Shown here: piece after piece, positions 5,807 through 19,991 of the stretch
Layout: each line of letters begins with the position of its first letter
Numbering within the stretch: position 1 is the first letter of the stretch
Assembly (NCBI GenBank): GCA_964549595.1
Contig: CAZJWK010000001.1
Coordinates: 35,767-99,766, forward strand
Reading direction: 5' to 3'
DNA: 64,000 nucleotides
Origin: an uncultured Sphingobacteriales bacterium
GTDB lineage: Bacteria > Bacteroidota > Bacteroidia > CAILMK01 > CAYYUA01
The notes under the pieces: model-generated
The model's database searches: none
Seen by the model: only the letters and a program-made list of their open reading frames with translations
What the model was told of the DNA's origin: nothing
Program-made: the position numbers and the translations under genes

Positions 5807-6523
5807 CTATTGGCGAAGGCTTGTTAAAAATTCCATAACATCAGACCTTTCCTCAAATTCCACCCGTTTATGAGTTTCCGGAACACGCATTGTGAAATAA
5901 TGCTTTTCCGGTTTTTCGTCCATTATCAATTGAGCCTTGAAACCCATAGAAAACCCTTTAGAGCCTTCTTTTTCTATAATGAGATGAAGGGGTAATCTAT
6001 TTATTTTATCCGGAAGAAATGGGAAGCATTGATTGGGAAGTTTGATTTTTTCTGCTACCCAAACCACTAAATTCGGTTCTTCCTCAGTGATGACACGAAT
6101 CCTTCGGGCCTTAAGCCCTGATATTTGCTTCTTATTTTTGGTTACTTGTATCCTTTTGAAATCCATTGTGAAAGTCTGAATAAATTGATCCAAAGCATAC
6201 TTCTGAGCAAACCTAAAGGTGTCAAAATTGACCATATACAATACGCTGTCATTGTTCGATACAAACTTCTTTTTAACATTCATACTGTAAGTACTAAACC
6301 ATCCATTTCTTTTCCAGCCATACTTTAAATAAAAGTGCTTTGTTAAAGGGTTAGAAGGTGGGGCCATATCATTTTTGAATTCTACTTTGTACTTAATAAT
6401 GCCAGTGTTCCAAGAGGAATCATTCTTCCGGATAACTTTTAAATCAAAAGAATTAGTATCCCATGAACGATAAATTAGGACAATGAAAACAATGATAGCA
6501 AGAAATGACAAAAATTTTTTCAT
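5807..6523 (-). CDS. Secreted / membrane-anchored hypothetical protein
   Basis: 238 aa with an N-terminal hydrophobic signal or anchor (MKKFLSFLAIIVFIVLIY) and no catalytic motifs. Confidence 0.45.
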   Translation of the reverse strand: MKKFLSFLAIIVFIVLIYRSWDTNSFDLKVIRKNDSSWNTGIIKYKVEFKNDMAPPSNPLTKHFYLKYGWKRNGWFSTYSMNVKKKFVSNNDSVLYMVNFDTFRFAQKYALDQFIQTFTMDFKRIQVTKNKKQISGLKARRIRVITEEEPNLVVWVAEKIKLPNQCFPFLPDKINRLPLHLIIEKEGSKGFSMGFKAQLIMDEKPEKHYFTMRVPETHKRVEFEERSDVMEFLTSLRQ

Positions 6524-6576
6524 GGCATTACCATGTATATGGATTTTTATTCAACCCATTGGCCCTAAAATACCCC

Positions 6577-7029
6577 TCATTCTCTCTGCTTAGAATCCAG
6601 CCAAATCGTAACCGGACCTTCATTGGTCAGGCTTACATCCATTTGAGCACCAAATTCCCCTGTGGCTATTTTTTTATCAATGGCCTCTTCGCATTGCTTA
6701 ATGAAAGATTCATATAATGGAATGGCCGTATCAGGATTGGCTGCCCTGATGAAAGAAGGTCGGTTGCCTTTTTTGGTACTGGCATGGAGGGTAAACTGAC
6801 TGATTATCATTAAATCACCACCGACTGATTTCAGGTTCAGGTTCATTTTGCCTTCCTCATCTTCAAAAATTCGCATGTTGGTGATCTTTTTAACCAACCA
6901 CCGGATATCTTCTTCGGCATCAGCTTCCTCAATACCAAGGAAGATAACAAACCCCCTTGAGATCCTGCCGTTTTCAGTACCCTCTATTGCCACATTAGCG
7001 GTTTTAACCTTTTGGATCAATGCTCGCAT
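6577..7029 (-). CDS. dtd: D-aminoacyl-tRNA deacylase
   Basis: 150 aa. The N-terminus MRALIQKV..A.V and the SQFTL motif (ISQFTLHA) are characteristic of Dtd. Confidence 0.9.
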   Translation of the reverse strand: MRALIQKVKTANVAIEGTENGRISRGFVIFLGIEEADAEEDIRWLVKKITNMRIFEDEEGKMNLNLKSVGGDLMIISQFTLHASTKKGNRPSFIRAANPDTAIPLYESFIKQCEEAIDKKIATGEFGAQMDVSLTNEGPVTIWLDSKQRE

Positions 7030-7082
7030 GGACTCCTTTTCTAATGAAGACCAAATGTCGTAATAATTGCGGATAGTGCAAG

Positions 7083-8330
7083 TTAGTATTCAGAAATAAA
7101 ATGCTGTTTTATCAACGCACTCCACAAAAAAAGCAAAATTCCGGTGATCAATAAAAAAGTAAAAGCCATTAACACCCATTCAAAAACCCAATAATTGATA
7201 AAAAATGGCTGAAAAATCCCTTTAAAAGCAAGTAAACCTTCCATAGTGGCAAATCCCACTAAGTAAAGCCATAATCCCATTTTGAAGCTTGTATTTTCGG
7301 GAATTAACCGGGCTTTCAAAAACCAAAAAACCAATCCGGAACTCACAAACCCCAACATGACCAGGTGCAAATACGCTACTATAATATCCCGGCTACCAAA
7401 AGCCAAAGGATAAAAGGCTGGTATTGCAGACATCGTTTGCAAGCAGAATTTGACCAAAACGCTTATCAAAGCAAGGTAGAATAATATTTTTGAGGAAAGT
7501 CCTGTGAAAGTTAAGCCCCTTTTTTTAGGATTTTTGAATAGGGCTAAGAGGAACAAAAAAGCGAAAAGCTGCACAATGGACGAAACAATGGCCAATCCTT
7601 CTACCATTAAAGGCAAATTAAAATTCAGCAAAGAAAGGAAATAGGCCGGTATGGTGGCCCAAAAAAGGAACCAAAAAGCCTTTTTGCCTTTCTTTAATGC
7701 TTTTTCTGTCAAAACCACATTAAAATGGTATAACCCCAAACCCATTAAGGCAAACGTAAACCAGCCATTATATTGGAAATGCAGATAAAAATAAATGGAC
7801 TGGTCGTACCAGTGCGTATCCTCCCATCCCTGGGCTCCTATGTAGGCCAAGGCCCAGGGCCCGAAAGAGGAAAAGACCATAAATACCAAGCTGCCCGCAA
7901 GGAATTTCCGCACCAAAGGGTTCAGGTGAAAAGTCTTTGGATTCCAATGTTTCCACAAATAGGCGGTAAAGCTGTAGGATAGCAAAATGTGGAGGGTTGA
8001 AAAAGCAATTGAATAAGTCCCGTATCCCTGAAAAGGAAAAGTAAATAACATCCCCAGTATGGCAACCTGGGTGAGCCCGAACAAAATTTTTACAGACCAC
8101 TTCTTAAACCCGTTTTCGCCAAAGATAACGCATATAATAGCAGTTATCAGGGCCATATAAACCCATCCCAGCATAGCCAAATGGGAATGGGTATGCAGGA
8201 AATAATCAAAAGTAAAACTACTCAAAAAGCCTGATTTCAAAGCCCTCAGGAATAAACCCAAAAGTGAAGTAATTAACCAATAAAGGAGGGCAACTCTAAA
8301 CCAGTTCAGGCTGGTTGAACGGAATAACAT
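7083..8330 (-). CDS. Polytopic membrane protein, NnrS-like (about 12 TM segments, His-rich)
   Basis: 415 aa, highly hydrophobic, with conserved-looking His residues (LHTHSHLAMLGW). It lies immediately downstream of an FNR-type regulator, as nnrS genes often do. The family call is tentative. Confidence 0.35.
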   Translation of the reverse strand: MLFRSTSLNWFRVALLYWLITSLLGLFLRALKSGFLSSFTFDYFLHTHSHLAMLGWVYMALITAIICVIFGENGFKKWSVKILFGLTQVAILGMLFTFPFQGYGTYSIAFSTLHILLSYSFTAYLWKHWNPKTFHLNPLVRKFLAGSLVFMVFSSFGPWALAYIGAQGWEDTHWYDQSIYFYLHFQYNGWFTFALMGLGLYHFNVVLTEKALKKGKKAFWFLFWATIPAYFLSLLNFNLPLMVEGLAIVSSIVQLFAFLFLLALFKNPKKRGLTFTGLSSKILFYLALISVLVKFCLQTMSAIPAFYPLAFGSRDIIVAYLHLVMLGFVSSGLVFWFLKARLIPENTSFKMGLWLYLVGFATMEGLLAFKGIFQPFFINYWVFEWVLMAFTFLLITGILLFLWSALIKQHFISEY

Positions 8331-8336
8331 GCGTTT

Positions 8337-9047
8337 TTAGATTTCCGGCTGACTAAGCCTGTACAAAGCTTTTTCATCCAGTAATTGAATAGACTTACCA
8401 CTTAAGGCAATATATTTTTCGGCCTCAAGGGCATTCAGAGAACGAATAACCGTTTCATAAGTAGTTCCTGCAAGACCGGCCAAATCCTTCCGGGTCATCC
8501 TCAGTTTAAGCAAGGATTTGTTTTCTTCCTGAACCCCAAAAACCTGTTTCACCATTAACAAAGCATCAGCAATTCTACTTTTCGCGCTCATGCGGACTAA
8601 GTTACGCATTCTTCGTTCTGCCAACTTAAGTTCCCCTGCGTAAAACATGAGTAATTGGTAGGTCAATGGCAGATTGGTTTTCAATAAACGGTCAAACAAA
8701 TCATTCCCGATAAAACAAATTTTAGAGGATTCAAGGGCAGTGGCTGAAACGGGATAGTACAATGCTCCGCCAAAACCCCGGTGTCCCAAAACATCACCGG
8801 ATTTTGCCAATCTTACGATATATTCCTTATTACTTTCCCACTTTTTATGCACTTTAACCTTGCCTTCATAAATGAAGAAAATGCCGTTTACCGAGCCGCC
8901 TTCTTCTATAATCCTTTCACCCTTTTTATACCTGTAAATGGGCTTGAAATGGCTTAAAAAAGCCCACCACTCCGGGTAAACAAATTGCTTGATAAAGCAC
9001 GCTTGGTTATCACAACTTTCGCAATCAAGGGGTTTAACAGGTTCCAT
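8337..9047 (-). CDS. FNR-type Crp/Fnr family transcriptional regulator (cNMP-binding fold plus C-terminal HTH) with an N-terminal Cys cluster
   Basis: 236 aa. The N-terminal CESCDNQAC (C-x2-C-x4-C) plus Cys111 (KICFIG) mirrors the four [4Fe-4S] ligands of FNR. The C-terminal HTH is RKDLAGLAGTTYETVIRSLNALE. Confidence 0.75.
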   Translation of the reverse strand: MEPVKPLDCESCDNQACFIKQFVYPEWWAFLSHFKPIYRYKKGERIIEEGGSVNGIFFIYEGKVKVHKKWESNKEYIVRLAKSGDVLGHRGFGGALYYPVSATALESSKICFIGNDLFDRLLKTNLPLTYQLLMFYAGELKLAERRMRNLVRMSAKSRIADALLMVKQVFGVQEENKSLLKLRMTRKDLAGLAGTTYETVIRSLNALEAEKYIALSGKSIQLLDEKALYRLSQPEI

Positions 9048-9094
9048 AAAAGTTTTTAAAACCTTTTTTAAGGTAAGTTTTTGTTAAGATAGCT

Positions 9095-10474
9095 TTAACT
9101 TACAGGTTCAAAATGGGCCGTAAAATGCCTTAAAAACCTGGGTTCTTTTATAATGCGGTAACCTTTCGCTTTATCCTTTTCTTTCAACACCTCCCGGAAA
9201 ATTTCCAGCACATAATCTACATGGCTTTGGGTATACACCCTCCGGGGTATGGCAAGACGGACCAGTTCCATATTGGCCGGAATCAACTCCCCTTTTTCAT
9301 CATACTTACCAAACATCACCGAGCCAATTTCAACACACCGAATACCTCCTTTTTTATAAAGCTCACAAACAAGGGACTGACCGGGATAGGCTTTTACCGG
9401 GATATGGGGAAATAGTGCTTTAGCATCTACATAAACAGCATGGCCGCCAATGGGCTTCACAACAGGAATACCCATTTTTTCCAAGTGTTCACCCAGGTAA
9501 GCTGTACTCCTTATCCGGTAATGTAAGTAGTCCGGGTCAAACACTTCTTCAAGGCCTTGGGCTGTTGCTTCCATATCCCTTCCTGACAAACCGCCGTAAG
9601 TGGTATAACCTTCGGTTATGATGAGGAGATTGCTACAAGCTTCGGCAAGTTCAGGATCATTCATTGCCAAAAAACCCCCTATGTTCACAAGGCCATCCTT
9701 TTTCGCACTCATGGTGGCGGCATCTGCCCAATTAAACATTTCTCGGGCAATGGCCTTGTAACTTTTATCGGCATACCCTTCCTCACGGTGTTTGATGAAA
9801 TAAGCATTCTCAGCAACCCGGCAGGCATCCAGAACCAAAAGCAAACCATTTTGGTCACAAATTTTACGTACTTCCTTGAGGTTCTCCAGGCTAACAGGTT
9901 GGCCACCACCTGTATTATTGGTGACCGTCATGATCACGGCCGCTATACGCTCAGGACCATAGGAATGAATCTGGTCAGTCAGATACGCTGTATCGATATT
10001 GCCTTTAAAAGGATACAGATCTTGAGGATCCAAAGCTTCCCTAATCGGGCAATCAACGGCTTCAGCACCGGAGAATTCTATATTGGCCCGGGTTGTATCA
10101 AAATGGGTATTGCTAAAAAACACTTTTTCTCTGCCCCCTAAATGGCCATATAATATTTTTTCGCCAGCCCTTCCTTGATGAGTCGGTAACACGTACGGAA
10201 AACCGGTTAATTCCGTAATAACCGATTGTAAGCGACCCCAGCTAGCGGCCCCTGCATAGGATTCATCTCCTTTCATTAGCCCGGACCATTGGTCCGTACT
10301 CATGGCAGATGTACCGCTATCCGTAAGGAAATCAATAAGCACTTGATCGGAGGTGAGTAAAAAAGGATTGTAATGGGCATTTTTAAGGTGTTCTATACGC
10401 TCTGATTCCGTAGATACACGGATAGGTTCCACCGACTTGATTTTAAAGGGTTCAAATATTACTTGTTTTTCCAT
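9095..10474 (-). CDS. tnaA: Tryptophanase / beta-eliminating lyase (tryptophan indole-lyase)
   Basis: 459 aa. Residues FLTDSGTSAMS and a PLP-lyase fold throughout give strong similarity to TnaA/TPL family enzymes. Tryptophanase versus tyrosine phenol-lyase cannot be resolved by eye. Confidence 0.85.
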   Translation of the reverse strand: MEKQVIFEPFKIKSVEPIRVSTESERIEHLKNAHYNPFLLTSDQVLIDFLTDSGTSAMSTDQWSGLMKGDESYAGAASWGRLQSVITELTGFPYVLPTHQGRAGEKILYGHLGGREKVFFSNTHFDTTRANIEFSGAEAVDCPIREALDPQDLYPFKGNIDTAYLTDQIHSYGPERIAAVIMTVTNNTGGGQPVSLENLKEVRKICDQNGLLLVLDACRVAENAYFIKHREEGYADKSYKAIAREMFNWADAATMSAKKDGLVNIGGFLAMNDPELAEACSNLLIITEGYTTYGGLSGRDMEATAQGLEEVFDPDYLHYRIRSTAYLGEHLEKMGIPVVKPIGGHAVYVDAKALFPHIPVKAYPGQSLVCELYKKGGIRCVEIGSVMFGKYDEKGELIPANMELVRLAIPRRVYTQSHVDYVLEIFREVLKEKDKAKGYRIIKEPRFLRHFTAHFEPVS

Positions 10475-10534
10475 TAATTACATTTTTAGGATAGGCAATA
10501 TTAAGTTACTTTCCAAGATTAAATTATGACATTT

Positions 10535-10550
10535 ATCACCAAATCTGTGA
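10535..10550 (-). promoter_or_regulatory. Candidate CRP/FNR-family operator in the tnaA leader (tATGA-N6-TCACc)
   Basis: TATGACATTTATCACC lies 60-75 bp upstream of the tnaA start codon. It has one mismatch per half-site to TGTGA-N6-TCACA. Confidence 0.25.
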
Positions 10551-10772
10551 AACCAGCTCTGCAACCAAAAACCCTTGTCACCGGCTTCCACAGGTTTTTG
10601 CTCCCTATTTTATTTCTGGGTGTATAAATAATAATTACTTTCGTCTTCAGGAAATCAGAGGGTAAAGCAAGGATTTAGCCATTCCCTCACTCTTTTTTTC
10701 CCCTAAAGGAAAGTCCTACTCCACAAATATTTTCATTAAACGCTTTGTGCCCTGTGGTCAAAAGGTGGGCTC

Positions 10773-11453
10773 TCAAAATGACCTCATTTTTTGAGGAGAA
10801 ATAATCCGGATGCACTTTTTTCGGCTTTCGAAAAGATTTTTTTCACGAAAAGATGGAAGAAGTTTCCGCATATAAGTTTTGGATATACCGGAAAGATCAG
10901 CAAGCTCTTCAGGACTTAAAGGAATCTTCAAAAAATTATTAGCATCTAAACCAAAATCGCTTATCAGTTTATTTAATAACTGTAAAATCTTCTTCCGGGC
11001 ATTCCAATGATGGGAAAAATCAGATTGGTCTTCCATTCTTTCTATCTGCCCGTTCAGCCGGCTGAGAATATCCATTGAAAATTGGGGATTTTCCTTAATG
11101 AGGGTAAAATAATGCTCGGTAGAAAGAAAGCCCGACTTTGTAAGCGTTAAAGCCTGGGCATTAACGGTATGGGTTGCGGAATAGTGGAAAATATCATTCA
11201 GTCCTAAAAAATCCCCATCTCTGGCCAAATAAAAGGTGAAAGGTTCACCCCCTTCAATATTTTCCAATTTTACTACACCGCTAAAAATATAATATATACC
11301 CGATAAAGGGTGTCCGGATTTAAACAAATAATCTTTTTCACGAAAAGTCATCGGGTAATTTGCCAATTCCCCCAATAAAGGATCCTGGCTATGATTCGAG
11401 GATTGATGCCGGGCTGGATTATTGAAACCTGAATGACTCATACCTCCGTCCAT
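10773..11453 (-). CDS. Crp/Fnr family transcriptional regulator (no Cys cluster)
   Basis: It carries a cNMP-binding beta-roll (GVVKLENIEGGEPFTFYLARDGDFLG) and a C-terminal HTH (ELADLSGISKTYMRKLL). The N-terminal 30 aa are low-complexity, so the true start may be the internal Met (MTFREKD). Confidence 0.75.
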   Translation of the reverse strand: MDGGMSHSGFNNPARHQSSNHSQDPLLGELANYPMTFREKDYLFKSGHPLSGIYYIFSGVVKLENIEGGEPFTFYLARDGDFLGLNDIFHYSATHTVNAQALTLTKSGFLSTEHYFTLIKENPQFSMDILSRLNGQIERMEDQSDFSHHWNARKKILQLLNKLISDFGLDANNFLKIPLSPEELADLSGISKTYMRKLLPSFREKNLFESRKKCIRIISPQKMRSF

Positions 11454-11491
11454 TTTAAATTCAAAGAACGAAGCTTAGGCACCCGGATTCA

Positions 11492-11505
11492 ATGATTTAA
11501 ATCAT
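11492..11505 (-). promoter_or_regulatory. FNR-type box (aTGAT-TTAA-ATCAt, a 14-bp perfect palindrome) upstream of the Crp/Fnr gene 10773..11453
   Basis: ATGATTTAAATCAT matches the TTGAT-N4-ATCAA core. It sits about 40-50 bp upstream of the annotated start of the downstream minus-strand regulator. Confidence 0.4.
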
Positions 11506-11756
11506 ACTTGCAGGAGAGCTAAAGACCTGGCAAAATCAAAATGAAAAGGGATCCACGGAATAAATATTTCTTCCCATCAAACCAGGGAAATTCAACCTTT
11601 TTTGGTTTACAGGCTTTTTATAATTATCTTTAAATGTAAGGGTGGTAAGTGGCCGCTTAATAAAAAAAATTGAAACCACAAGTAAGAAAAGTTTGATAAG
11701 CCATCCAAATAAAAACAGGATGTATCAACCAATTGAAGGATAGAATAACTTTTTAA

Positions 11757-12158
11757 TCAAGCCAGGCTTTTTTCAATCGCCCCAAGCAATTCTTCTTTTT
11801 TGACGGGCTTAGCCAGATAATCATCGAACCCTTCTTGCAGAAAAGTTTCCTTATCTTCAGGCATGGCATAAGAAGTCAAAGCAAAAATAGGAGGATCCCC
11901 GTATTTCCCTGTAGTCTTAATATGCCTCATAATTTCTGTGCCACTCATTGAGTCTTCTCCAAGGTTAATATCCATCAGGATAATGGTAAAATCCTGCTGA
12001 TTAAGTACTTGAAAAGCCTCTTCACTGTTCCGGGTTAAAATAACCTGATAATGATTACCCAACATTTTTTGAAGCACAAACTGGCTAATATCATCATCCT
12101 CAACAATCAAAATTTTTGGTTGGCTATCACTATCATTGCTTTCCCTGACCATAAGCAC
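11757..12158 (-). CDS. Stand-alone response regulator receiver (CheY-like)
   Basis: 133 aa. ILIVEDDD ... ILMDINLGEDSMSG ... ALTSYA ... DDYLAKP is the canonical REC domain, with the phospho-accepting Asp in MDINL. Confidence 0.85.
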   Translation of the reverse strand: MLMVRESNDSDSQPKILIVEDDDISQFVLQKMLGNHYQVILTRNSEEAFQVLNQQDFTIILMDINLGEDSMSGTEIMRHIKTTGKYGDPPIFALTSYAMPEDKETFLQEGFDDYLAKPVKKEELLGAIEKSLA

Positions 12159-12209
12159 AGTGCCTAAACAAATTAATTTCTTTAAATAACAAAAATCGAA
12201 GCTAAAGGT

Positions 12210-15200
12210 TTAATCTGACTCTTCCAAAGACCGTGTCAATGGCATAGTGATTTGAAAAGTACTTCCTTCCCCTTTTTTACTTGTAACCTTAATGGTTCCT
12301 CCGAATAGTTCAACGTACTTTTTGACAATGGACAATCCCAGACCTGTTCCTTCATAATCCCGGCCATGACCCTCACTTTCCTGTTCAAATGGGGAAAATA
12401 TCTTTTCAATATTTTCTTCGGAAATACCTATTCCGGTATCAATTACTTCAATAATAAATTTTTCCTTCCGCTCATCCTTAATTCTTGTCCTGATTTTTAC
12501 ACATCCTTCTTCAGTAAATTTAACCGCATTTCCTACCAGGTTATTCAGTATCTGCTCCAGGACATTTTCATCAATTTGAACGTAATATTGACCACCGGCC
12601 AGATCATTAATGAAATCAATGCCTTTTTTGTCAGCCAAAACTTTCAAATGGGGCTGAAGCGCGTTTATCTTGCTATTCACTTCAATGATACTGGGCCTAA
12701 GGTTAACCTCTTTTGCTTCGAGCTTTGAAAAATCCAGAATACTTGTTATGGTTTTAAGCAGCCTTTCGCTGCTTTCCCGTATCATCCTGGCATAGGAATT
12801 AACGCCTTCAACGTCACTATATTCATCTTCCATTACCTGGACTAAACCCATAATGCCATTAATGGGGGTCCGGATTTCGTGACTCATGTTAGCCAAGAAG
12901 TTCGTTTTAAGCCTATTCATTTCCTCAGCTTTTTCTTTGGCCTCCACGAGTTTATTTTCCACTTCCTTTTGCTTGGTTATATCCCTTACGGCCCCGTCAT
13001 AAAAAACTTTTCCGTACTCATCCAATAAGCGCTTGCTACTCAATAATCCCCAGAAGGTACTGCCATCTTTTCTTTTAAAAAGCACTTCCTGGTTCTGAAA
13101 CCCTCCCTCTTCTTGTTCCTTTTCAATGAGCCGTTCCCTTTCTTCCGGATCGGCGTAAAGTTCTAAACCTTGTGTTTTCAAAACATCCTCTGTAGAATCA
13201 TAGCCAAAAATTTTGGCAAATGGCTCATTAACATATATGACACCACTTTCAGGTGTGCTCCTAAAAATCCCCTCGTTGATATGCTGGTTTATAGACTCCA
13301 GCAGTTGTTTATGTTGCCTAAGCTCATGTTCGGCCTGCTTTTGCTGGGTTATATCCATTGCATACAGAAATACAAAGTCTCCTTCCTGGTTCGGATTTAT
13401 GGTTATTTGGTAATGACCATCCCCGATTTTAGATTCAAATACTTGACTATGCCCCTTTTTTAAGGCCTCTTGAATAACATTGTAAAAATCAGGGGGGAAA
13501 GACTGGTTATATTGTTCCTGCCAATAGGTAATAAATGGTTCCCCGACTGGATTGGCGTACAAGAATTCCCCATTTTCAGAAATGGTTAGGACGGGATTGG
13601 GGTTATCTTCCGGAAAACGGGATAATAACCTGATTTTCTTTTCATAATTCTTTCTTTCAGTAATTTCCCTGGAAGCGTTCTGGACCTGAATCAGGTTACC
13701 ATCATCATCAAAAATAGGTACAGTTACGGTTTCCACATAAGTATAATTTCCTTCTTTGGTTTTAACCCGGTATTCATGAGCAGAGGCTTTTCCCTCGGCT
13801 AAATATTTTTCTCCCTCTTGCTGAATAACTTTTAGATCTTCCGGGTGAATAAGATCATTAGCCGGCATATTTAACACTTCCTCAGGTTTAAAACCCAAAA
13901 TATCTTCTACACTTGGCGTAATATAGGTGATCAGACCTTCTTCATTTTGTAAGGTGATAATATCCCGGGTGTTTTCAGTAACCAACCTAAGTTTGGCCTC
14001 CCTTTCCCCCAATTCCTGTTTGGATTTTTCCAGTGCTTCATTGATCTCCCTCAGTTCCTGATTTTTTGAATTTAGCTCCTCATTTAAAGATTGCAGTTCT
14101 TCATTGGAAGTTTCCAATTCTTCATTGGCTGATTTAAGTTCTTCATTGGCTGATTGCAATTCTTCAGTAAGAGATTGGGTTTCAGCTTCACTGGCTTCCA
14201 GCTGTTTGCGGTAAGTTTCAAGTTGTTCTTTCGCTACTTTTAATTCTTCCCTTAAAGATTCAATTAAGAAATCTTTATTGGACAAATCTTTTTCCCCTGA
14301 ATCTTGTCGGTCGGGATCACTTACCTCAGGGGTTTTGGCCGACCCTTTAAAAATGATAAGGAAATATTCGACCGGCTCATCCCCATAAACAACAGGTTGA
14401 ATAACCATTTGAACCCGGTAATCCTTTTCAAATAATTTAAAATGTACTTCATTGGTGGTTATAGGTATTAAGTTCTTTTGACACTTAATTAGCCCGGTAT
14501 GAAGTTCATGGTGCAGCTCCTCATTAACCAATTCAAGAATATGCTTATCCCCATTGTTAAAACCCATGTAAGCCCTCAACTCCCCTTGTGTTTCAATGAT
14601 TTTGTGGTGGGAATTGACCACCACATAGGGATGCTCATAAGTTTTGGCGATGGTTTCTCTCGCCATTTCCAGAATTGTGGGCTTTTCATCTTCTCCTTTC
14701 CGATAAATTCCTTGTTCCCAGGAATAAAATTTTTGAAAATTAAAAAACTGAAGATCCCTGGATCCTTGATTTTCCTTATTCTTATAAATCTTATGCTTGG
14801 TATCGACCAGTTCCAAAAGGTCTCTGAAAGCTTCTATATTTTCCGATTTTCCAATCACCAAATAGCCATAATCGACCAATGAATAATTAAAAACCGGAAT
14901 AACTTTATTTTGAAGGTCAGCATTAAAATAAATCAACAAATTCCGGCAGGTAATCAAATCAATATTCAGGAAAGGGGGATCTTTAGTAATATCATGCCTG
15001 CAAAATACAACTACCTTTCTTAAAAACTCTTTCACCTCAAATCCATCTTCTTTCTCATTAAAATACTTGTCAATCTGATCTCGAGAAAGGTTTTGCAAGG
15101 ACTTCTCACTGTATAAACCTTTTCTTCCTGCGTTAATGGCATACTCGCTTATATCGGAAGCAAAAATTTTGATATCCCGTTTTTCAAAGTCCTCAAGCAA

Positions 15201-15551
15201 TTCAGCCAGTAAAATGGCTATGGAGAGGGGTTCCTCACCGCATGAACAACCAATTGACCAAATTCTGATGGGATCGTTCTTTTTTTTCCGGGCAATGATT
15301 TTCCCCAACCTTTCGCGGATTTTCTGAAAAACCTGGGGGTCCCGAAAAAACTCCGAAATCCCCAAAAGCATCTCACTAAAGGCTTGTCCTACTTCCTCCG
15401 GATTATTCCGGAGATAAGTGTAATATTCCTTATAGTCATCAAATCCTAAGGTATTTAAACGCTTTTCCAATCTGCGTTTTAAGGTGGACTTTTTATATTT
15501 CAGGAAATCAATGCCGGTTTGTTCACTAACCAACTGTAAAATGGCTTTCAT
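12210..15551 (-). CDS. Hybrid sensor: CheR-type MCP methyltransferase, coiled-coil NEEL repeats, PAS domains, then a histidine kinase (HisKA + HATPase_c)
   Basis: 1113 aa. The N-terminal CheR fold (IRIWSIGCSCGEEP) is followed by a heptad repeat (EELQSANEELKSANEELETSNEELQSLNEELNSKNQEL), multiple PAS-like segments, an H-box (NMSHEIRTPINGIMG) and a G-box ATPase (DTGIGIS...GTGLGLSIVK). Confidence 0.85.
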   Translation of the reverse strand: MKAILQLVSEQTGIDFLKYKKSTLKRRLEKRLNTLGFDDYKEYYTYLRNNPEEVGQAFSEMLLGISEFFRDPQVFQKIRERLGKIIARKKKNDPIRIWSIGCSCGEEPLSIAILLAELLEDFEKRDIKIFASDISEYAINAGRKGLYSEKSLQNLSRDQIDKYFNEKEDGFEVKEFLRKVVVFCRHDITKDPPFLNIDLITCRNLLIYFNADLQNKVIPVFNYSLVDYGYLVIGKSENIEAFRDLLELVDTKHKIYKNKENQGSRDLQFFNFQKFYSWEQGIYRKGEDEKPTILEMARETIAKTYEHPYVVVNSHHKIIETQGELRAYMGFNNGDKHILELVNEELHHELHTGLIKCQKNLIPITTNEVHFKLFEKDYRVQMVIQPVVYGDEPVEYFLIIFKGSAKTPEVSDPDRQDSGEKDLSNKDFLIESLREELKVAKEQLETYRKQLEASEAETQSLTEELQSANEELKSANEELETSNEELQSLNEELNSKNQELREINEALEKSKQELGEREAKLRLVTENTRDIITLQNEEGLITYITPSVEDILGFKPEEVLNMPANDLIHPEDLKVIQQEGEKYLAEGKASAHEYRVKTKEGNYTYVETVTVPIFDDDGNLIQVQNASREITERKNYEKKIRLLSRFPEDNPNPVLTISENGEFLYANPVGEPFITYWQEQYNQSFPPDFYNVIQEALKKGHSQVFESKIGDGHYQITINPNQEGDFVFLYAMDITQQKQAEHELRQHKQLLESINQHINEGIFRSTPESGVIYVNEPFAKIFGYDSTEDVLKTQGLELYADPEERERLIEKEQEEGGFQNQEVLFKRKDGSTFWGLLSSKRLLDEYGKVFYDGAVRDITKQKEVENKLVEAKEKAEEMNRLKTNFLANMSHEIRTPINGIMGLVQVMEDEYSDVEGVNSYARMIRESSERLLKTITSILDFSKLEAKEVNLRPSIIEVNSKINALQPHLKVLADKKGIDFINDLAGGQYYVQIDENVLEQILNNLVGNAVKFTEEGCVKIRTRIKDERKEKFIIEVIDTGIGISEENIEKIFSPFEQESEGHGRDYEGTGLGLSIVKKYVELFGGTIKVTSKKGEGSTFQITMPLTRSLEESD
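14091..14174 (-). repeat. Four tandem 21-bp repeats (ttnnanttcttcattggnnga) that encode the NEELxSx heptads of the CheR-HK
   Basis: Units sit at 14091-14111, 14112-14132, 14133-14153 and 14154-14174. They encode (A/S/L)NEEL(Q/K/E)(S/T) on the minus strand. Confidence 0.6.
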
Positions 15552-15660
15552 ATCTTTCCCATCCGTTATTTATTCCAAAAACAAGCGTTCCTTTGCAAAT
15601 AAAATAATTTTGAAAAATAAAAAACCAATGAGCCGTATTGAATAAATTAAAAGTTGCAAT

Positions 15661-17139
15661 CTATCCTTTATACGGCACATTGTTTTTTTCCTTTTGCTTG
15701 CTAATAAGCCATAACCCAAGGAAAGTAATGAGCCCGTTTATGATCAATAACTCAAACCCCACTTCATATCCGGCCAAAAAATAAGGGGAATACCACCCAG
15801 CCAGAAATGCCAGGAAAGGGGAAGTAAAACAAACGATTGGTATTAAGCGGTCCTTCGGGTTTCGGTGCATAAACAGCCCAAAACTGAAAAGGCCCAGCAA
15901 AGGACCGTAAGTATAGGAAGCGGCGTCAAAAATCTTACTGATCACACTTTTATCGTTCAAGTAGTGAAAAAATAAGATAATGCCCAATAAAAGGATCGTA
16001 AAACCTAAATGCACGAAATGCCTTGTTTTGGAATTTTGCGTCATTTTTTCCCCTTTAAAGCCCAAAAAATCCACACAAAAAGCAGTAGTAAGAGCAGTCA
16101 AAGCGGAATCAGCACTGGAATAGGCAGAGGCAGTCAATCCCAGAATAAAAGCTATGCTGGCGTACAAAGGAAAATGGTCAAAAGCTATTCGGGGATAAAG
16201 GTAATCTGATTTGTCAGGTATCCCAATGCCGTTCTGATTCGCATAAAGGTATAACAAAGCACCCAGCACCAGAAAAATAAATTTGATAACCACCAATCCC
16301 CCTGTAAATGTAAACATATTTTTCTGGGCATCCTTAAGATCAGGACAGCTAAGGTTTTTTTGCATCATATCCTGATCCAGGCCGGTCATCACAATGGCTA
16401 TAAAAGCGCCACTCAGAAATTGTTTAGGGAAAAAATTCTCCGATTTAAAATTATCAAAAAAGAAAATCTTGCTGTAATCACTATTAGCCACTGTTTGGGT
16501 TAGCCCGGCAAAGTCAAGCTCCATATTAATGGTAAGGTAAATGATGCTCACAAAAAGGGCAATGACCATAAGACCGGTTTGTAAGGTATCGGTATAAACG
16601 ATGGTTTTTATGCCTCCTCTATGCGTATAGACCCAAATCAGGGCAAGGGTAATCATAACAGCCAGAAAAAAGGGGAAACCCAATTCCTTGAATATGAAAA
16701 CCTGGAAAACTATAGCCACCAAATAAAGCCGGAAAGCCGCACCAATGGAGCGGGATAACAAAAAGAAAAAGGAACCTGTTTTGTAGGAAAAATGGCCAAA
16801 CCGTTTTTCCAGGTAGCCATAAATCGAAGTGAGGTTTAAACGGTAGTATAGGGGCATTAAAATGGTTGCGATAACCGTATAGCCAATAATGTAACCTAAA
16901 ACCATTTGGAAATAGGAGAATTGGGTGTCTCCAACCCAACCGGGAACCGAAATAAACGTTACACCGGAAAAAGTGGTGCCTATCATTCCGAAAGCCACTA
17001 CATACCAAGGGGATTGCCGATTGGCTAAAAAGAAAGTCTGGTTATCAACCTGTTTTTTGGTGGTAACCCTTGAAATAAAAAATAATAAACCAAAATAGGC
17101 AATGACAGCGATGATTGTGATAATCGTCACTAAGGGCAT
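15661..17139 (-). CDS. Sodium:solute symporter family transporter
   Basis: 492 aa with about 13 TM segments. The N-terminal region (FFLANRQSPWYVVAFGMIGTTFSGVTFISVPGWV) is typical of the SSF family. Confidence 0.75.
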   Translation of the reverse strand: MPLVTIITIIAVIAYFGLLFFISRVTTKKQVDNQTFFLANRQSPWYVVAFGMIGTTFSGVTFISVPGWVGDTQFSYFQMVLGYIIGYTVIATILMPLYYRLNLTSIYGYLEKRFGHFSYKTGSFFFLLSRSIGAAFRLYLVAIVFQVFIFKELGFPFFLAVMITLALIWVYTHRGGIKTIVYTDTLQTGLMVIALFVSIIYLTINMELDFAGLTQTVANSDYSKIFFFDNFKSENFFPKQFLSGAFIAIVMTGLDQDMMQKNLSCPDLKDAQKNMFTFTGGLVVIKFIFLVLGALLYLYANQNGIGIPDKSDYLYPRIAFDHFPLYASIAFILGLTASAYSSADSALTALTTAFCVDFLGFKGEKMTQNSKTRHFVHLGFTILLLGIILFFHYLNDKSVISKIFDAASYTYGPLLGLFSFGLFMHRNPKDRLIPIVCFTSPFLAFLAGWYSPYFLAGYEVGFELLIINGLITFLGLWLISKQKEKNNVPYKG

Positions 17140-17287
17140 TCCGGAACCTCCGGGTTTTTTAAAACTGTTTAAATTTTAATTTTGTCCATTATTGCTTAAC
17201 CCTGTAAAAGCAATCAAAATTAAGAGAAATTGCCTTGGAAATGGTAAAATCTTAACAACTTTGAAGATTAGCTAAAAAAGGGCATTC

Positions 17288-17893
17288 ATGGAATACCCGT
17301 CCAAATTTATTGAAGAAGCGGTGGAGGAATTTGCTAAACTTCCCGGTGTGGGTAAAAAAACAGCATTGAGACTGGTCCTGCACCTGCTTAAAGAAGACGA
17401 AGAGTCCGCCAAAAATTTAGGCAATGCGATTATTCAGCTTAAGGACAAAATTTATTATTGTAAAATATGCCATAACGTTGCCGATCAAGATATATGCTCA
17501 ATTTGTAATGACAATACCCGTGACCATACAGTGGTTTGCCTGGTAGAGGATATGCGGGATGTAATGGCTATTGAGGGAACCGGTCAGTACCAGGGGACCT
17601 ACCATATTTTAGGGGGTTTGATTTCTCCGATGGATGGCATTGGGCCGGAAAATTTAAACATTCAGTCTTTAATCGACCGTGTTAAGGAAAAAAGCGTCAA
17701 AGAAATTATTTTTGCTCTTAGCACCACGATGGAAGGAGATACAACCATGTTTTACATTGCCAAGCAATTAAGAGACCGGGATTTGCGAATATCTTCTATA
17801 TCACGTGGAATTGCCATCGGAGGAGAATTGGAATATACGGACGATGTAACCCTTGCCCGATCCATTGCGGAAAGGGTGCCTTATTCACAATAA
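17288..17893 (+). CDS. recR: Recombination protein RecR
   Basis: 201 aa. A helix-hairpin-helix (LPGVGKKTALRL), a C4 zinc finger (CKICHNV...CSICND) and a Toprim domain are present. Confidence 0.95.
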   Translation: MEYPSKFIEEAVEEFAKLPGVGKKTALRLVLHLLKEDEESAKNLGNAIIQLKDKIYYCKICHNVADQDICSICNDNTRDHTVVCLVEDMRDVMAIEGTGQYQGTYHILGGLISPMDGIGPENLNIQSLIDRVKEKSVKEIIFALSTTMEGDTTMFYIAKQLRDRDLRISSISRGIAIGGELEYTDDVTLARSIAERVPYSQ

Positions 17894-18005
17894 AAAAGCT
17901 TTAAAAAAGTTTTACATAAATCCGGGTAAGTTTTGGGGAAATCTTAAAATGAACGAATGGAAACACCCATTGAATGCCATGGGGGTTAGCTAATGAAAGG
18001 ATGGC

Positions 18006-19991
18006 ATGAAGCTATCAATTGTCATAGTCAATTACAATGTAAAGTATTTCCTCGAACAGACCCTGCTATCGGTGAGGAAGGCCACTGAGGAGTTAAAGGC
18101 ATTAGGCCCGGGTTACGAGGCAGAAATATTTGTGGTCGATAACAACTCAGTCGATGGCTCAATTTCCATGCTCCGGGAAAAATTTCCAGAGGTTACCCTT
18201 ATTGCCAATAAAGAGAATATCGGTTTTGCCCGTGCCAATAACCAGGCCTTGTCAAAAGTATCCGGGGAATTGAGTTTACTTTTAAATCCGGACACTGTGG
18301 TTGAGGAAGATACCTTTACCAAAGTGATCCGTTTCATGGATGAACACCCCGAAGCCGGAGGATTGGGTGTAAAAATGCTGGACGGTAAAGGCCGTTTCTT
18401 ACCGGAATCCAAGCGAGGCTTTCCTTCCCCTGAAGTGGCTTTCTACAAGGCCTTTGGGTTATCCAGTCTTTTCCCCAACTCAAAGGCTTTTGGCAAGTAT
18501 CACCTCGGATACCTCGATAAAGATGAGATTCACAAGGTGGATGTATTGGCAGGTGCTTTTATGCTGGTACGTACCAAAGTTTTGAATGAAATCGGTTTAT
18601 TGGATGAGACCTTTTTCATGTATGGGGAGGATATTGATTTCTCCTACCGGATCAAAAATGCCGGCTATGAGAATTACTATTACCCGGACACCCGTATCAT
18701 CCATTATAAGGGGGAAAGCACCAAGAAGCAAAGCATTAATTACGTTTTTGTCTTTTACCAGGCCATGATCATTTTTGCCAAGAAGCACTTTTCCGCTAAA
18801 AAGGCTGCCATCTTCTCTTTCTTGCTCAACCTTGCCATTTATTTCAGGGCTTCGCTCGCTATATCATTCCGGTTTGCCAAACAAATGGCCCTTCCTATAC
18901 TCGATTATACGCTGATCTTTATAGCGCTATACTTAACAGCTTCCTCCAATACCGTACTTTTTAAAGAAGGGACTGAAACCCTTCCTTCCAATTGGCTGGA
19001 TTACCAGCTTCCGATAGGCGTGCTGATCTGGATTCTGGGAAATGTATTTACCAGGAATTACCGAAAACCCTTTACGTTAGGTAAGATTGTCAACGGGACC
19101 CTTTTAGGCACGCTGGCGGTGGCTGCAGCTTATGCTTTTTTGCCGGATTCATGGCAGCACTCACGCGGGTTTATCCTGATAGGAGGACTTTACTCCGGTT
19201 TGATTTTCACCCTTAACCGGTTGGTTTTTCACTTCAAGGATTACAAAAATTTACGACTGGGGGCCAAGGGCCTGAAAAAGATCATCATTGTGGGTGGAAA
19301 GGAAGAGGCAGACCGCGTTGAACAATTGCTTGAGGATAGCCGTGTACGCTTTCAATTGGTGGGTTATGTAGATCCGAATGGTAACGGGCAAAGCAATGAA
19401 TACCCCTATATTGGTCAATTAAGCCAGCTCGGGGAAATCTCCACAATTTATGATGTTACGGAAATCATCTTTTGCGCTAAAGATATTGCCTCCCACAAAA
19501 TCATTAACTGGATGGTATACATCCAGGATCAACAGATCGACTTCAAGATTGCACCGGAAGAAAGCTTGTTTATCATCGGAAGCCGCTCAAAGCACTTACC
19601 CGGAGATTTTTACACCATTAATATTGAGCTGGGATTGGCTCAACCTACCAATCGTTTCAATAAATATGCTTTTGATCTGCTTTCTTCACTGGGTTTGATG
19701 CTGACCCTACCGGTTACCATCTGGTTTATTAAGGATAAAAAAGGGTTTATGCAAAATATTACCCGGGTGCTAACGGGCAGGAGCTCCTGGGTAGGATATG
19801 AGCGCTCCTCACAGACCTATAAACTCCCTGAACTCCGCAAAGGCGTTCTCAGTCCTTGCGATGAGCTCACCGAAAACCACCTCGACCAAGCCACCATTGA
19901 GCGGTTAAACTTCTTGTATGCACGCGATTATGAGCTAAGTAAAGACCTTAAGATCATCACCAGGAATTTTTCCCGCTTAGGTGAACACTAA
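18006..19991 (+). CDS. Family-2 glycosyltransferase fused to a membrane region and a truncated sugar-transferase (PGT-like) module
   Basis: The GT2 N-terminus (SIVIVNYN ... VVDNNSVDGS ... YGEDIDFSYR) is followed by TM helices, a Rossmann-like segment (KKIIIVGGKEEADRV) and the start of a Bac_transf-like helix (KYAFDLLSSLGLMLTLPVTIWFI). The canonical C-terminal catalytic part is absent. Confidence 0.65.
   Translation: MKLSIVIVNYNVKYFLEQTLLSVRKATEELKALGPGYEAEIFVVDNNSVDGSISMLREKFPEVTLIANKENIGFARANNQALSKVSGELSLLLNPDTVVEEDTFTKVIRFMDEHPEAGGLGVKMLDGKGRFLPESKRGFPSPEVAFYKAFGLSSLFPNSKAFGKYHLGYLDKDEIHKVDVLAGAFMLVRTKVLNEIGLLDETFFMYGEDIDFSYRIKNAGYENYYYPDTRIIHYKGESTKKQSINYVFVFYQAMIIFAKKHFSAKKAAIFSFLLNLAIYFRASLAISFRFAKQMALPILDYTLIFIALYLTASSNTVLFKEGTETLPSNWLDYQLPIGVLIWILGNVFTRNYRKPFTLGKIVNGTLLGTLAVAAAYAFLPDSWQHSRGFILIGGLYSGLIFTLNRLVFHFKDYKNLRLGAKGLKKIIIVGGKEEADRVEQLLEDSRVRFQLVGYVDPNGNGQSNEYPYIGQLSQLGEISTIYDVTEIIFCAKDIASHKIINWMVYIQDQQIDFKIAPEESLFIIGSRSKHLPGDFYTINIELGLAQPTNRFNKYAFDLLSSLGLMLTLPVTIWFIKDKKGFMQNITRVLTGRSSWVGYERSSQTYKLPELRKGVLSPCDELTENHLDQATIERLNFLYARDYELSKDLKIITRNFSRLGEH

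Follow-up and report, generated by a model that had tools for sequence, protein, structure and literature searches.

Gene organization of the locus

We analyzed a 64,000-nucleotide stretch of DNA (hereinafter, the window) from an uncultured Sphingobacteriales bacterium in which six consecutive minus-strand genes encode a sensor histidine kinase, a stand-alone receiver, a Crp-like regulator, a tryptophanase (TnaA), an FNR-type regulator, and a membrane protein with 12 transmembrane (TM) helices that is denoted X throughout. Open reading frame (ORF) calling recovers all six genes at exactly the positions given in the original prediction for this DNA, and Pfam and NCBIfam searches confirm five of the six identities. 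In the minus-strand gene order, starting from the kinase, the genes are separated by 51, 303, 298, 47, and 6 bp (Table 1).

The last three genes look like one operon, as had been proposed from the two shortest gaps. The gaps themselves, the lack of either a terminator-like hairpin (terminator scan and folding) or a -7-like element in the tnaA-fnr and fnr-X spacers, and the conservation of the gene order and of the 6-bp spacing in a second organism all suggest co-transcription. The region as a whole probably consists of three transcription units, namely, the kinase with the receiver, a monocistronic Crp-like gene, and tnaA-fnr-X, perhaps extended by the dtd gene. Genome signal scans performed at background level, with 25 sigma-70 promoters found against 28.7 expected and 17 terminators against 14.9 expected, and an Rfam scan of positions 6400-17400 detected no riboswitch, leader or other element.

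Table 1 Genes and candidate regulatory sites of the tnaA-fnr-X region, in window coordinates
Feature	Position	Strand	Description
D-aminoacyl-tRNA deacylase (dtd)	6577..7029	-	53 bp downstream of the membrane protein gene
Membrane protein (X)	7083..8330	-	415 aa, 12 TM helices; unnamed branch of the heme-copper oxidase superfamily
FNR-type regulator (fnr)	8337..9047	-	236 aa; C9-x2-C12-x4-C17 and C111; recognition helix ETVIR
Tryptophanase (tnaA)	9095..10474	-	459 aa; NF009709, 670.4 bits (cut-off 285)
Candidate Crp/Fnr box GTGATAAATGTCAT	10527..10540	-	centered 59.5 bp upstream of the tnaA ATG
Crp/Fnr-family regulator without Cys cluster (Crp-like)	10773..11453	-	226 aa; cNMP_binding 2.1e-9, HTH_Crp_2 9.2e-6
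Perfect 14-bp palindrome ATGATTTAAATCAT	11492..11505	.	TGAT-N4-ATCA, Crp/Fnr-type; centered 45.5 bp upstream of the Crp-like ATG
Stand-alone receiver	11757..12158	-	133 aa; Response_reg 5.3e-22; 51 bp downstream of the kinase
Sensor histidine kinase	12210..15551	-	1113 aa, cytoplasmic; CheR_N and CheR methyltransferase, coiled coil (~415-520), two PAS, HisKA, HATPase_c

The fnr-X pair is a conserved core

Close relatives of this locus are absent from the reference genomes, where the best identity is 41%, and a scan of JGI metagenomes with the FNR-type protein produced matches of at most 48%. Several short contigs reached through the protein database are informative. In locus L090, the 3' end of tnaA (85% identity) is followed, after 87 bp, by fnr (70%); locus L089, which overlaps L090 by 21 exact bases, shows X (51%) beginning 6 bp after fnr, so that both the order and the 6-bp spacing seen in the window are reproduced. 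The three respective proteins (P0242, P0123, and P0004) are each assigned to one 6,785-bp NCBI contig. In L086-88, tnaA (78-82%) is followed by 466 bp of non-coding DNA and then by X (55%), with no fnr, and neither an ORF nor an fnr remnant (tblastn, E ≤ 1e-3) is detectable in the tnaA-X spacer (L086:462-927), where relatives have fnr; either fnr has been deleted here or tnaA and X could have been joined independently. L094 contains fnr (72%), 5 bp, X (55%), and then nadA, with no tnaA, and in L091 the order is Trx9-ORF-fnr (56%)-X (42%)-hemerythrin-Rrf2. Given these four arrangements, fnr-X is the conserved core to which tnaA has been attached in a sub-lineage.

The position of dtd, a possible operon tail, is not kept in these relatives, with nadA following the membrane protein gene in L094 and a convergent radical SAM gene in L086; a search of the X-dtd spacer of the window for a terminator-like hairpin and a -7-like element revealed neither. 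Downstream of dtd lies a 238-aa ORF (5807-6523, minus strand) with an N-terminal hydrophobic segment and no Pfam or NCBIfam match. At the other end of the region, a sodium:solute symporter gene is located 109 bp upstream of the kinase gene.

A distant FNR-like regulator with a conserved Cys cluster

The FNR-type regulator combines a cNMP-binding-like domain (PF00027, 1.6e-15) with a Crp-type helix-turn-helix (HTH) domain (PF13545, 3.7e-15), and its closest homologs show 51-73% identity. The FNR-style Cys cluster pointed out in the original prediction (C9, C12, C17, and C111) stands up to comparison with these homologs: all four Cys are kept in five of the seven close relatives (P0122, P0123, P0124, P0126, and P0128), and across 32 sequences the conservation of C111 is 90% or more. 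A shifted N-terminal Cys pattern is present in P0127, and the wider Bacteroidota family displays the N-terminal pattern C-x4/5-C-x2-C-x2-C. In the alignment, C111 is paired with the equivalent of C122 in the crystallized FNR of Aliivibrio (A. fischeri) and, with an 11-residue offset, C9 and C12 match C20 and C23, with C17 falling one residue short of C29. Three N-terminal Cys and a central one are thus found in the FNR register and are conserved in orthologs. Comparison with hidden Markov models (HMMs) agrees at the level of domain architecture and fails at the level of the curated family, where the regulator scores 73.9 bits with NF008365 against a cut-off of 228. Because this score is far below the cut-off, the regulator is, by sequence, a member of a distant, FNR-like paralog family and not an FNR ortholog. 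Its four Cys may well carry an O2/NO-labile [4Fe-4S] cluster.

A membrane protein family with the heme-copper oxidase fold

We detected more than 1,250 homologs of X, all unnamed and none with a precomputed Pfam domain; most are from Bacteroidota and Ignavibacteria, others from Paenibacillus and further groups. The family is not described in the literature searched (DUF2871 and NnrS-fold topics). A confident AlphaFold2 model (pLDDT 92.5, pTM 0.92) displays the 12-TM fold of subunit I of the heme-copper oxidase (HCO) superfamily; a search of the PDB with the family sequence profile gave no match. In an alignment of 37 diverse members, R29, H48, H50, Q88, H184, S233, H322, and E364 are invariant and H46 is nearly so, and the family motifs are LHxHSHxAxLGW, IYFYLHFQYNGWF, and GYLHLVMLGF.

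The conserved His residues map only to TM2 (H46, H48, and H50), TM6 (H184), and TM10 (H322), helices that hold ligands in HCOs, and there are none in TM7. TM7 of HCOs supplies two of the three CuB/FeB histidines. The six canonical His ligands (one in TM2, one in TM6, two in TM7, and two in TM10) are therefore not all present; in particular, TM10 reads AYLH versus the canonical AHVH, with one His instead of two. A collinear hhalign alignment with CcoN proteins of the fetched loci, which has a probability of only 1.9% and is to be read together with the helix positions, pairs H48 with the low-spin heme His and H184 with the TM6 CuB His, and places L232/S233 against the HH pair of TM7 and AYLH322 against AHVH; the count of His per helix holds independently of this residue-level alignment. 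According to Murali et al. 2024 (PMC11214002), gNOR is the only HCO family in which the active-site His are not conserved. Because TM7 has no conserved His and TM10 has only one, X is an HCO-fold protein that cannot have a canonical CuB/FeB-heme binuclear center. At most, it would have a bis-His heme via H48 and H322, along with the other conserved His and Glu residues.

NnrS proteins are reported to be of comparable size, to have 12 TM helices and conserved histidines, and to be linked to NO. The original prediction described X as NnrS-like, and the length of about 400 aa, the 12 TM helices, the conserved histidines, and the NO-related genomic context, including that of NO stress, all agree with such an assignment. 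The HMM searches do not: the window protein matches neither PF05940 (E ≤ 0.01) nor any NCBIfam model nor COX1 (PF00115), and its match to DUF2871 is below the threshold (20 bits versus 27.4). When the 37 members were scanned singly, none matched NnrS (0/37 at E ≤ 1), and the weak hits went instead to COX1 (8/37, best E 2.5e-7) and DUF2871 (5/37). Membership of X in the NnrS family is therefore rejected, and that it is an NnrS-family heme/copper protein after all appears extremely improbable. What survives is the functional idea of an NO-related membrane protein of the heme/copper type, given the fold and the genomic context, and a role resembling that of NnrS is plausible.

Most X genes have NO- or N2O-related neighbors

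To characterize the genomic company of the X family, 80 loci from reference genomes were combined with 5 from earlier look-ups (85 in total, 82 non-redundant); the ORFs located within 5 kb on either side of the X gene were clustered, and recurrent clusters were named by Pfam. At least one NO/N2O-related neighbor is present in 63 of the 82 loci and in 24 of the 31 lineage labels. The most common neighbor is ScdA/RIC (42/82 loci), followed by NosD (31/82), a NosY-like permease (27/82), NosF, NosZ, and Rrf2 (26/82 each), NosL (21/82), a small hemerythrin (20/82), cbb3 oxidase (18/82), truncated globin (15/82), and Crp/Fnr (13/82). These genes are arranged around X in at least four orders. In Flagellimonas and its relatives, the order is nosZ-nosL-nosD-nosF-nosY-[X]-Rrf2-RIC-globin, with X starting 43-113 bp past nosY; in Aequorivita, it is hemerythrin-RIC-[X]-ccoI-cbb3; in Polaribacter, Rrf2-[X] is found beside nirK-senC-ric (L003 carries nirK-senC-ric-Rrf2); and in L055, L060, and L068, Crp/Fnr-[X] is divergent from nosZ. 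The Crp/Fnr regulators adjoining X are of three sensor types: Cys-bearing, ~200-aa proteins without Cys, and those fused to a receiver (REC) domain. From the association with nos genes, RIC/ScdA, Rrf2 (NsrR-like), hemerythrin, globin, cbb3, and Crp/Fnr, the X family would be expected to handle NO/N2O-related electron transfer or NO stress. The oxygen/NO theme of the original prediction is thus strongly supported by the neighbors of the X family in other genomes.

Several other features recur in these neighborhoods. In Hymenobacteraceae and L091 (L001:4844-5997, L091:263-1242, and the Pontibacter loci), a Thioredoxin_9 protein and a Pfam-less protein of 123-146 aa precede X. Radical SAM genes lie beside Crp/Fnr or X in three loci (L102:1168-2280, BATS, ThiH/HydG-like; L094:2-553, minus strand; L086:2151-3242, minus strand), and fasciclin-domain lipoproteins are encoded in L086, L064, and L102. 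The closest homologs of X in the genome collection (39-42%) come from Ignavibacteria (L004, L006-L011, and L015), with neighbors such as OmpA/PD40 and DinB.

A genuine tryptophanase associated with N-oxide genes in some lineages

The tnaA product exceeds the cut-off of its family HMM by a wide margin (Table 1) and falls below those of the narrow equivalogs (TIGR02617, 492 against 826; NF053783, 556 against 750) as well as that of the tyrosine phenol-lyase (TPL) equivalog (515 against 721). Its closest solved relatives are the tryptophanases 8sij (473 bits) and 8sbg (450 bits), with TPL next at 440 bits. The protein contains the pyridoxal phosphate-binding Lys in the motif SAKKD, an Asp in FDTT, and a His in LRHFTA. 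The Asp and His stand where the TPL sequence compared has Thr124 and Phe448, positions that determine specificity and set tryptophanase apart from TPL. By the family HMM, the cofactor-binding Lys, and these two positions, this is a tryptophanase; TPL was considered as an alternative and rejected, given the residues at the Asp/His positions and the top matches in the PDB.

The genetic context is not the textbook one with TnaC and CRP, as had been surmised: no tnaC-like Rfam element was detected between 6400 and 17400, and no permease gene adjoins tnaA, so that the tnaC-tnaA-tnaB layout is missing. A 37-codon upstream ORF starting with GTG (MEAGDKGFWLQSWFHRFGDKCHNLILESNLILPILKM; 10478-10591, minus strand) contains Trp codons at two places and stops 3 nt short of the tnaA start codon; the candidate Crp/Fnr box ahead of tnaA lies partly within it. 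This ORF, which has no conservation backing, could be due to chance or could be a TnaC-like leader.

In two other loci, tnaA is found among NO- and N2O-related genes in different arrangements. L102, a 500-kb contig, encodes a TnaA 72% identical to that of the window inside a co-directional nos cluster, between ywiC and nosD, with flanking gaps of 38 and 128 bp. The order in this cluster is Crp/Fnr (with N-terminal Cys)-radical SAM-Rrf2-RIC-cyt c-NosZ-...-NosL-CtaA-fasciclin-YwiC-tnaA-NosD-NosF-NosY. In L064, a Chitinophagales metagenome-assembled genome, tnaA (62%) is the third gene of the string nadA-nadB-tnaA-scdA, next to which lie X and nosZ; a PAS kinase and a REC-Crp fusion are encoded at a distance of a few kb. 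The link between tnaA and N-oxide genes is therefore recurrent and restricted to some lineages. We found no paper joining tryptophanase with nosZ or nos clusters in the literature searched, and no title or abstract there ties tnaA to FNR or NsrR, in keeping with the claim that this wiring had not been described.

At the end of the L102 nos cluster, after a TonB-dependent receptor, three small membrane proteins of 160, 150, and 134 aa are encoded (17808-19187), the middle one with a weak COX1 match; the trio may be fragment-sized HCO-like or DUF2871-like proteins. Next to them, on the opposite strand, are two rhodanese genes. In a Saprospiraceae locus (L103:8501-13336), two beta-eliminating lyase paralogs (460 and 458 aa) are transcribed divergently from a head-to-head arrangement, and the genes that come next encode a 4HBT thioesterase, a U32 peptidase-family protein, and a small ferredoxin, a different context that is possibly anaerobic.

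Candidate Crp/Fnr operators

Two candidate operators lie upstream of genes in the region, a perfect palindrome ahead of the Crp-like gene and a related box ahead of tnaA (Table 1). Identical copies of the palindrome are present in L094 (2787-2800), upstream of nadA that directly follows the fnr-X pair, and in L065 (7609-7622), about 940 bp upstream of the membrane protein gene; nadA and nadB also flank tnaA in L064. A -7-like element, TAATATTG, 22 nt past the tnaA box would put this box at about -41, a class II-like position, and an alternative -7 element, TAATCTTG, would put it inside the core promoter. Depending on which of the two is the actual element, the predicted effect on tnaA would be activation or repression. 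The TGAT-N4-GTCAT variant seen in the tnaA box is also found ahead of fnr in L094 (position 606) and ahead of the first gene of the L091 operon (position 198). Across the fetched loci, the enrichment of TGAT-N4-ATCA boxes is about 2-fold within 750 bp upstream of the membrane protein gene and about 4-fold immediately downstream, the latter in a phylogenetically redundant set.

Kinase, receiver and Crp-like gene

The kinase produces highly significant Pfam matches (CheR 1.2e-53, PAS 3.5e-28, HisKA 5.2e-17, HATPase_c 1.4e-30), and its HisKA/HATPase_c module adjoins a receiver domain across the 51-bp gap, making the two proteins a putative cognate two-component pair, probably transcribed apart from tnaA. 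The Crp-like protein scores 26.0 bits with HTH_Crp_2, slightly below the 27-bit cut-off, and shows 19% identity to its FNR-like paralog. With intergenic regions of 303 and 298 bp on either side, the Crp-like gene is probably monocistronic. The kinase, receiver, and Crp-like genes are linked to tnaA by orientation alone and are treated here as separate units; that they feed into the control of tnaA is doubtful.

REC-Crp/Fnr fusions of ~350 aa recur within 5-10 kb of the HCO-fold membrane protein gene (L064:19571-20665, L063:11242-12300, L037:6904-7950, L023:4601-5650, L029:4627-5682, and L079:4646-5698), and in the window these domains are divided among individual genes; in L064, the fusion comes directly after the PAS histidine kinase. 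The possibility that the receiver and the Crp-like protein of the window are a split version of such a fusion was considered and rejected because the parallel is at the level of domains, with 21-25% sequence identity.

Interpretation of the locus

With moderate confidence, we favor the reading in which the locus comprises an FNR-controlled tnaA-fnr-X operon built on an NO/N2O module, and not a six-gene signaling unit; the two-component pair and the Crp paralog next to it would be unrelated to it or linked only loosely. The genes fnr and X form a widespread two-gene regulator-membrane module, the 6-bp gap being close enough for translational coupling. The FNR-type regulator would sense O2/NO via a labile [4Fe-4S] cluster, and the membrane protein would handle NO/N2O-related electron transfer or NO stress. 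In the lineage represented by the window, a genuine tryptophanase gene has come to stand first in this module, downstream of a TGAT-N4-GTCA Crp/Fnr box, such that the cleavage of tryptophan to indole, pyruvate, and NH4+ would be switched together with the module when O2 falls or NO appears, with the FNR-type regulator controlling its own synthesis as well. The original prediction is thus confirmed in part as an observation and partly supported as an interpretation.

Quite a few observations weigh against this reading. L094 keeps the pair without tnaA, and L086 keeps tnaA and X without fnr. L090 has a perfect FNR box, TTGATTTGAATCAA, in the tnaA-fnr spacer, and fnr-X in that organism would accordingly have a regulated promoter of its own and need not be co-transcribed with tnaA. 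A Saprospiraceae ortholog of tnaA (69%) has no NO/N2O neighbors; tnaA occurs within 10 kb in only one of the 85 X-anchored loci; none of the eight Ignavibacteria homologs of X (0/8) has an NO/N2O context; and the window itself contains no nos, RIC, Rrf2 or cbb3 genes within its 64 kb. As for regulation, the number of TGAT-N4-ATCA sites in the window is not above chance (TGATNNNNATCA, one exact copy versus 1.3 expected), the tnaA box has no unambiguous place with respect to the promoter, for which there are two incompatible -7/-33 candidates, and a close FNR ortholog, P0125, has Trp in the position of C17. The low-probability alignment behind the ligand map of X belongs here as well, and both co-transcription and regulation are what we infer from sequence. 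Much of this, namely, the separate FNR box in L090, the pair lacking tnaA in L094 and L091, the 84 of 85 membrane-anchored loci without tnaA, and the unrelated context of the Saprospiraceae gene, would also fit a fortuitous adjacency, in which an ordinary catabolic tryptophanase happens to lie upstream of an independent fnr-X module. Such an origin fits less well with the persistence of the trio, with the identical 6-bp fnr-X spacing, at protein identities of only 51-85%, with the adjacency of tnaA and X even where fnr is missing (L086), and with two other, differently arranged loci (L102 and L064) that put tnaA inside or beside nos/RIC genes, and we consider it rather unlikely.

The other alternative follows the original prediction, with all six genes in one signaling cluster: the CheR-PAS kinase would phosphorylate the receiver, which would act through or with the Crp-like regulator, and these together with FNR would control tnaA and the membrane protein. 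All six genes are indeed co-directional, the Crp-like gene and tnaA are preceded by a perfect Crp/Fnr palindrome and a related box, respectively, and in L064 the genes for a PAS kinase and for a REC-cNMP-HTH_Crp fusion in one polypeptide lie no more than 6 kb from tnaA and X; together with the fusions near the X family in L063, L037, L023, L029, and L079, this amounts to a domain-level 'Rosetta stone' for the receiver and Crp. Against this integration, the Crp-like gene is set apart by the 303-bp and 298-bp gaps on its two sides, and the 21-25% identity of the window proteins to the fusions indicates that they are not split orthologs. Histidine kinase matches are present within 10 kb in 9 of the 85 loci and REC matches in 7 of the 85, both being very common families, and the contigs of close relatives end short of the region upstream of tnaA, so that conserved synteny could not be shown. 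A unit that includes the kinase, the receiver, and the second Crp along with tnaA is thus not supported, with gaps of about 300 bp on one side and domain-level hints from distant genomes on the other, and we regard it as unlikely.

If tnaA indeed belongs to an NO/N2O module as in the favored reading, the reason for the link can be sought in several directions. We give the most weight, well short of considering it probable, to the possibility that there is no dedicated role. By analogy with the TorR-tnaA connection in E. coli, a metabolic 'anticipation' is possible, in a tentative sense, whereby tryptophan cleavage would offset the proton consumption and alkalinization caused by N-oxide respiration or would supply pyruvate and NH4+. 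That indole acts in nitrosative stress, either scavenging or signaling, seems unlikely; classical nitroso-indole chemistry is among the known precedents by which the link might be explained. Less likely still is a contribution of the Cys-desulfhydrase side activity, which would yield sulfide. In E. coli, TorRS-dependent induction of tnaA is described as pre-empting alkalinization during respiration of trimethylamine N-oxide (Bordi 2003, via PMC10662104), and L-cysteine desulfhydrase activity of TnaA has been documented (PMC6401616).

The proposition that X is an undescribed HCO branch with a remodeled metal site and that, at the same time, tryptophanase is a functional part of N-oxide metabolism in several Bacteroidota lineages is, taken jointly, rather unlikely. 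Should it be correct, X could serve the clade II N2O reductase clusters and the NO-stress regulons of Bacteroidota as a dedicated accessory, for example, a new NO-handling enzyme or an electron conduit to NosZ, and tryptophanase might provide an indole scavenger or signal, buffer protons as in the Tor-tnaA case, or supply sulfide for the CuZ [4Cu:2S] site or for Fe-S repair with RIC. Compared to the literature searched, what is new is the unnamed HCO-fold family with degenerate ligands and its strong association with nos, RIC, and Rrf2 genes, along with the repeated appearance of tryptophanase as a recruit in clusters of this kind. N2O is a major greenhouse gas for which N2O reductase is the sole biological sink known, and among its consumers Bacteroidota with clade II nosZ are abundant. 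The presence of X beside nosY or RIC/NsrR-like genes in dozens of genera makes it a candidate for a missing accessory involved in electron delivery, NO protection or maturation, one that is open to direct test in cultured Flagellimonas, Aequorivita, Pontibacter, and Polaribacter. The placement of tnaA suggests that the indole output of environmental Bacteroidota may respond to oxygen and N-oxides, which differs from the tryptophan/catabolite logic of enterobacteria and bears on indole signaling in soils, sludge, and sediments. As a natural HCO fold that appears to have lost the canonical binuclear center, X would also be informative for the evolution of the superfamily.

Comparison with known systems

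Compared to FNR of E. coli and Aliivibrio, the regulator shares the cNMP-like sensor and HTH_Crp domains, the equivalent of C122 in C111, the E and R of the E--SR motif, and TGAT-N4-ATCA-type boxes nearby. It differs in that the third Cys is spaced by x4 rather than x5 and S212 is replaced by Ile (ETVIR versus ETISR), and its closest solved relative is 2gau, an uncharacterized Crp/Fnr-family regulator. The membrane protein shows 10-16% identity to HCO subunit I proteins (cbb3 CcoN, cNOR NorB, and qNOR); it is shorter than CcoN and NorB, and there is no partner subunit gene alongside. With NnrS (PF05940), it has in common the similar size, the 12 TM helices, and the NO-stress context, without a sequence relationship by HMM.

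In clade II nos clusters of the Flagellimonas/Allomuricauda/Maribacter type, X is located directly past nosY, at the 43-113 bp noted above, whereas the window holds only the regulator-membrane module and tnaA. The tnaCAB operon of E. coli, which is subject to TnaC attenuation, CRP activation, and TorR induction, encodes the same enzyme, with tryptophanase-type specificity residues, and a Crp/Fnr-family site is found upstream in the window, too. Unlike that operon, the locus described here has no tnaC-like Rfam element and no tnaB, the regulator and membrane protein genes are located downstream of tnaA, and the promoter context is of the Bacteroidota type. A precedent for coupling tnaA to a signal of anaerobic respiration is nevertheless provided by the regulation of tnaA by TorR in E. 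coli.

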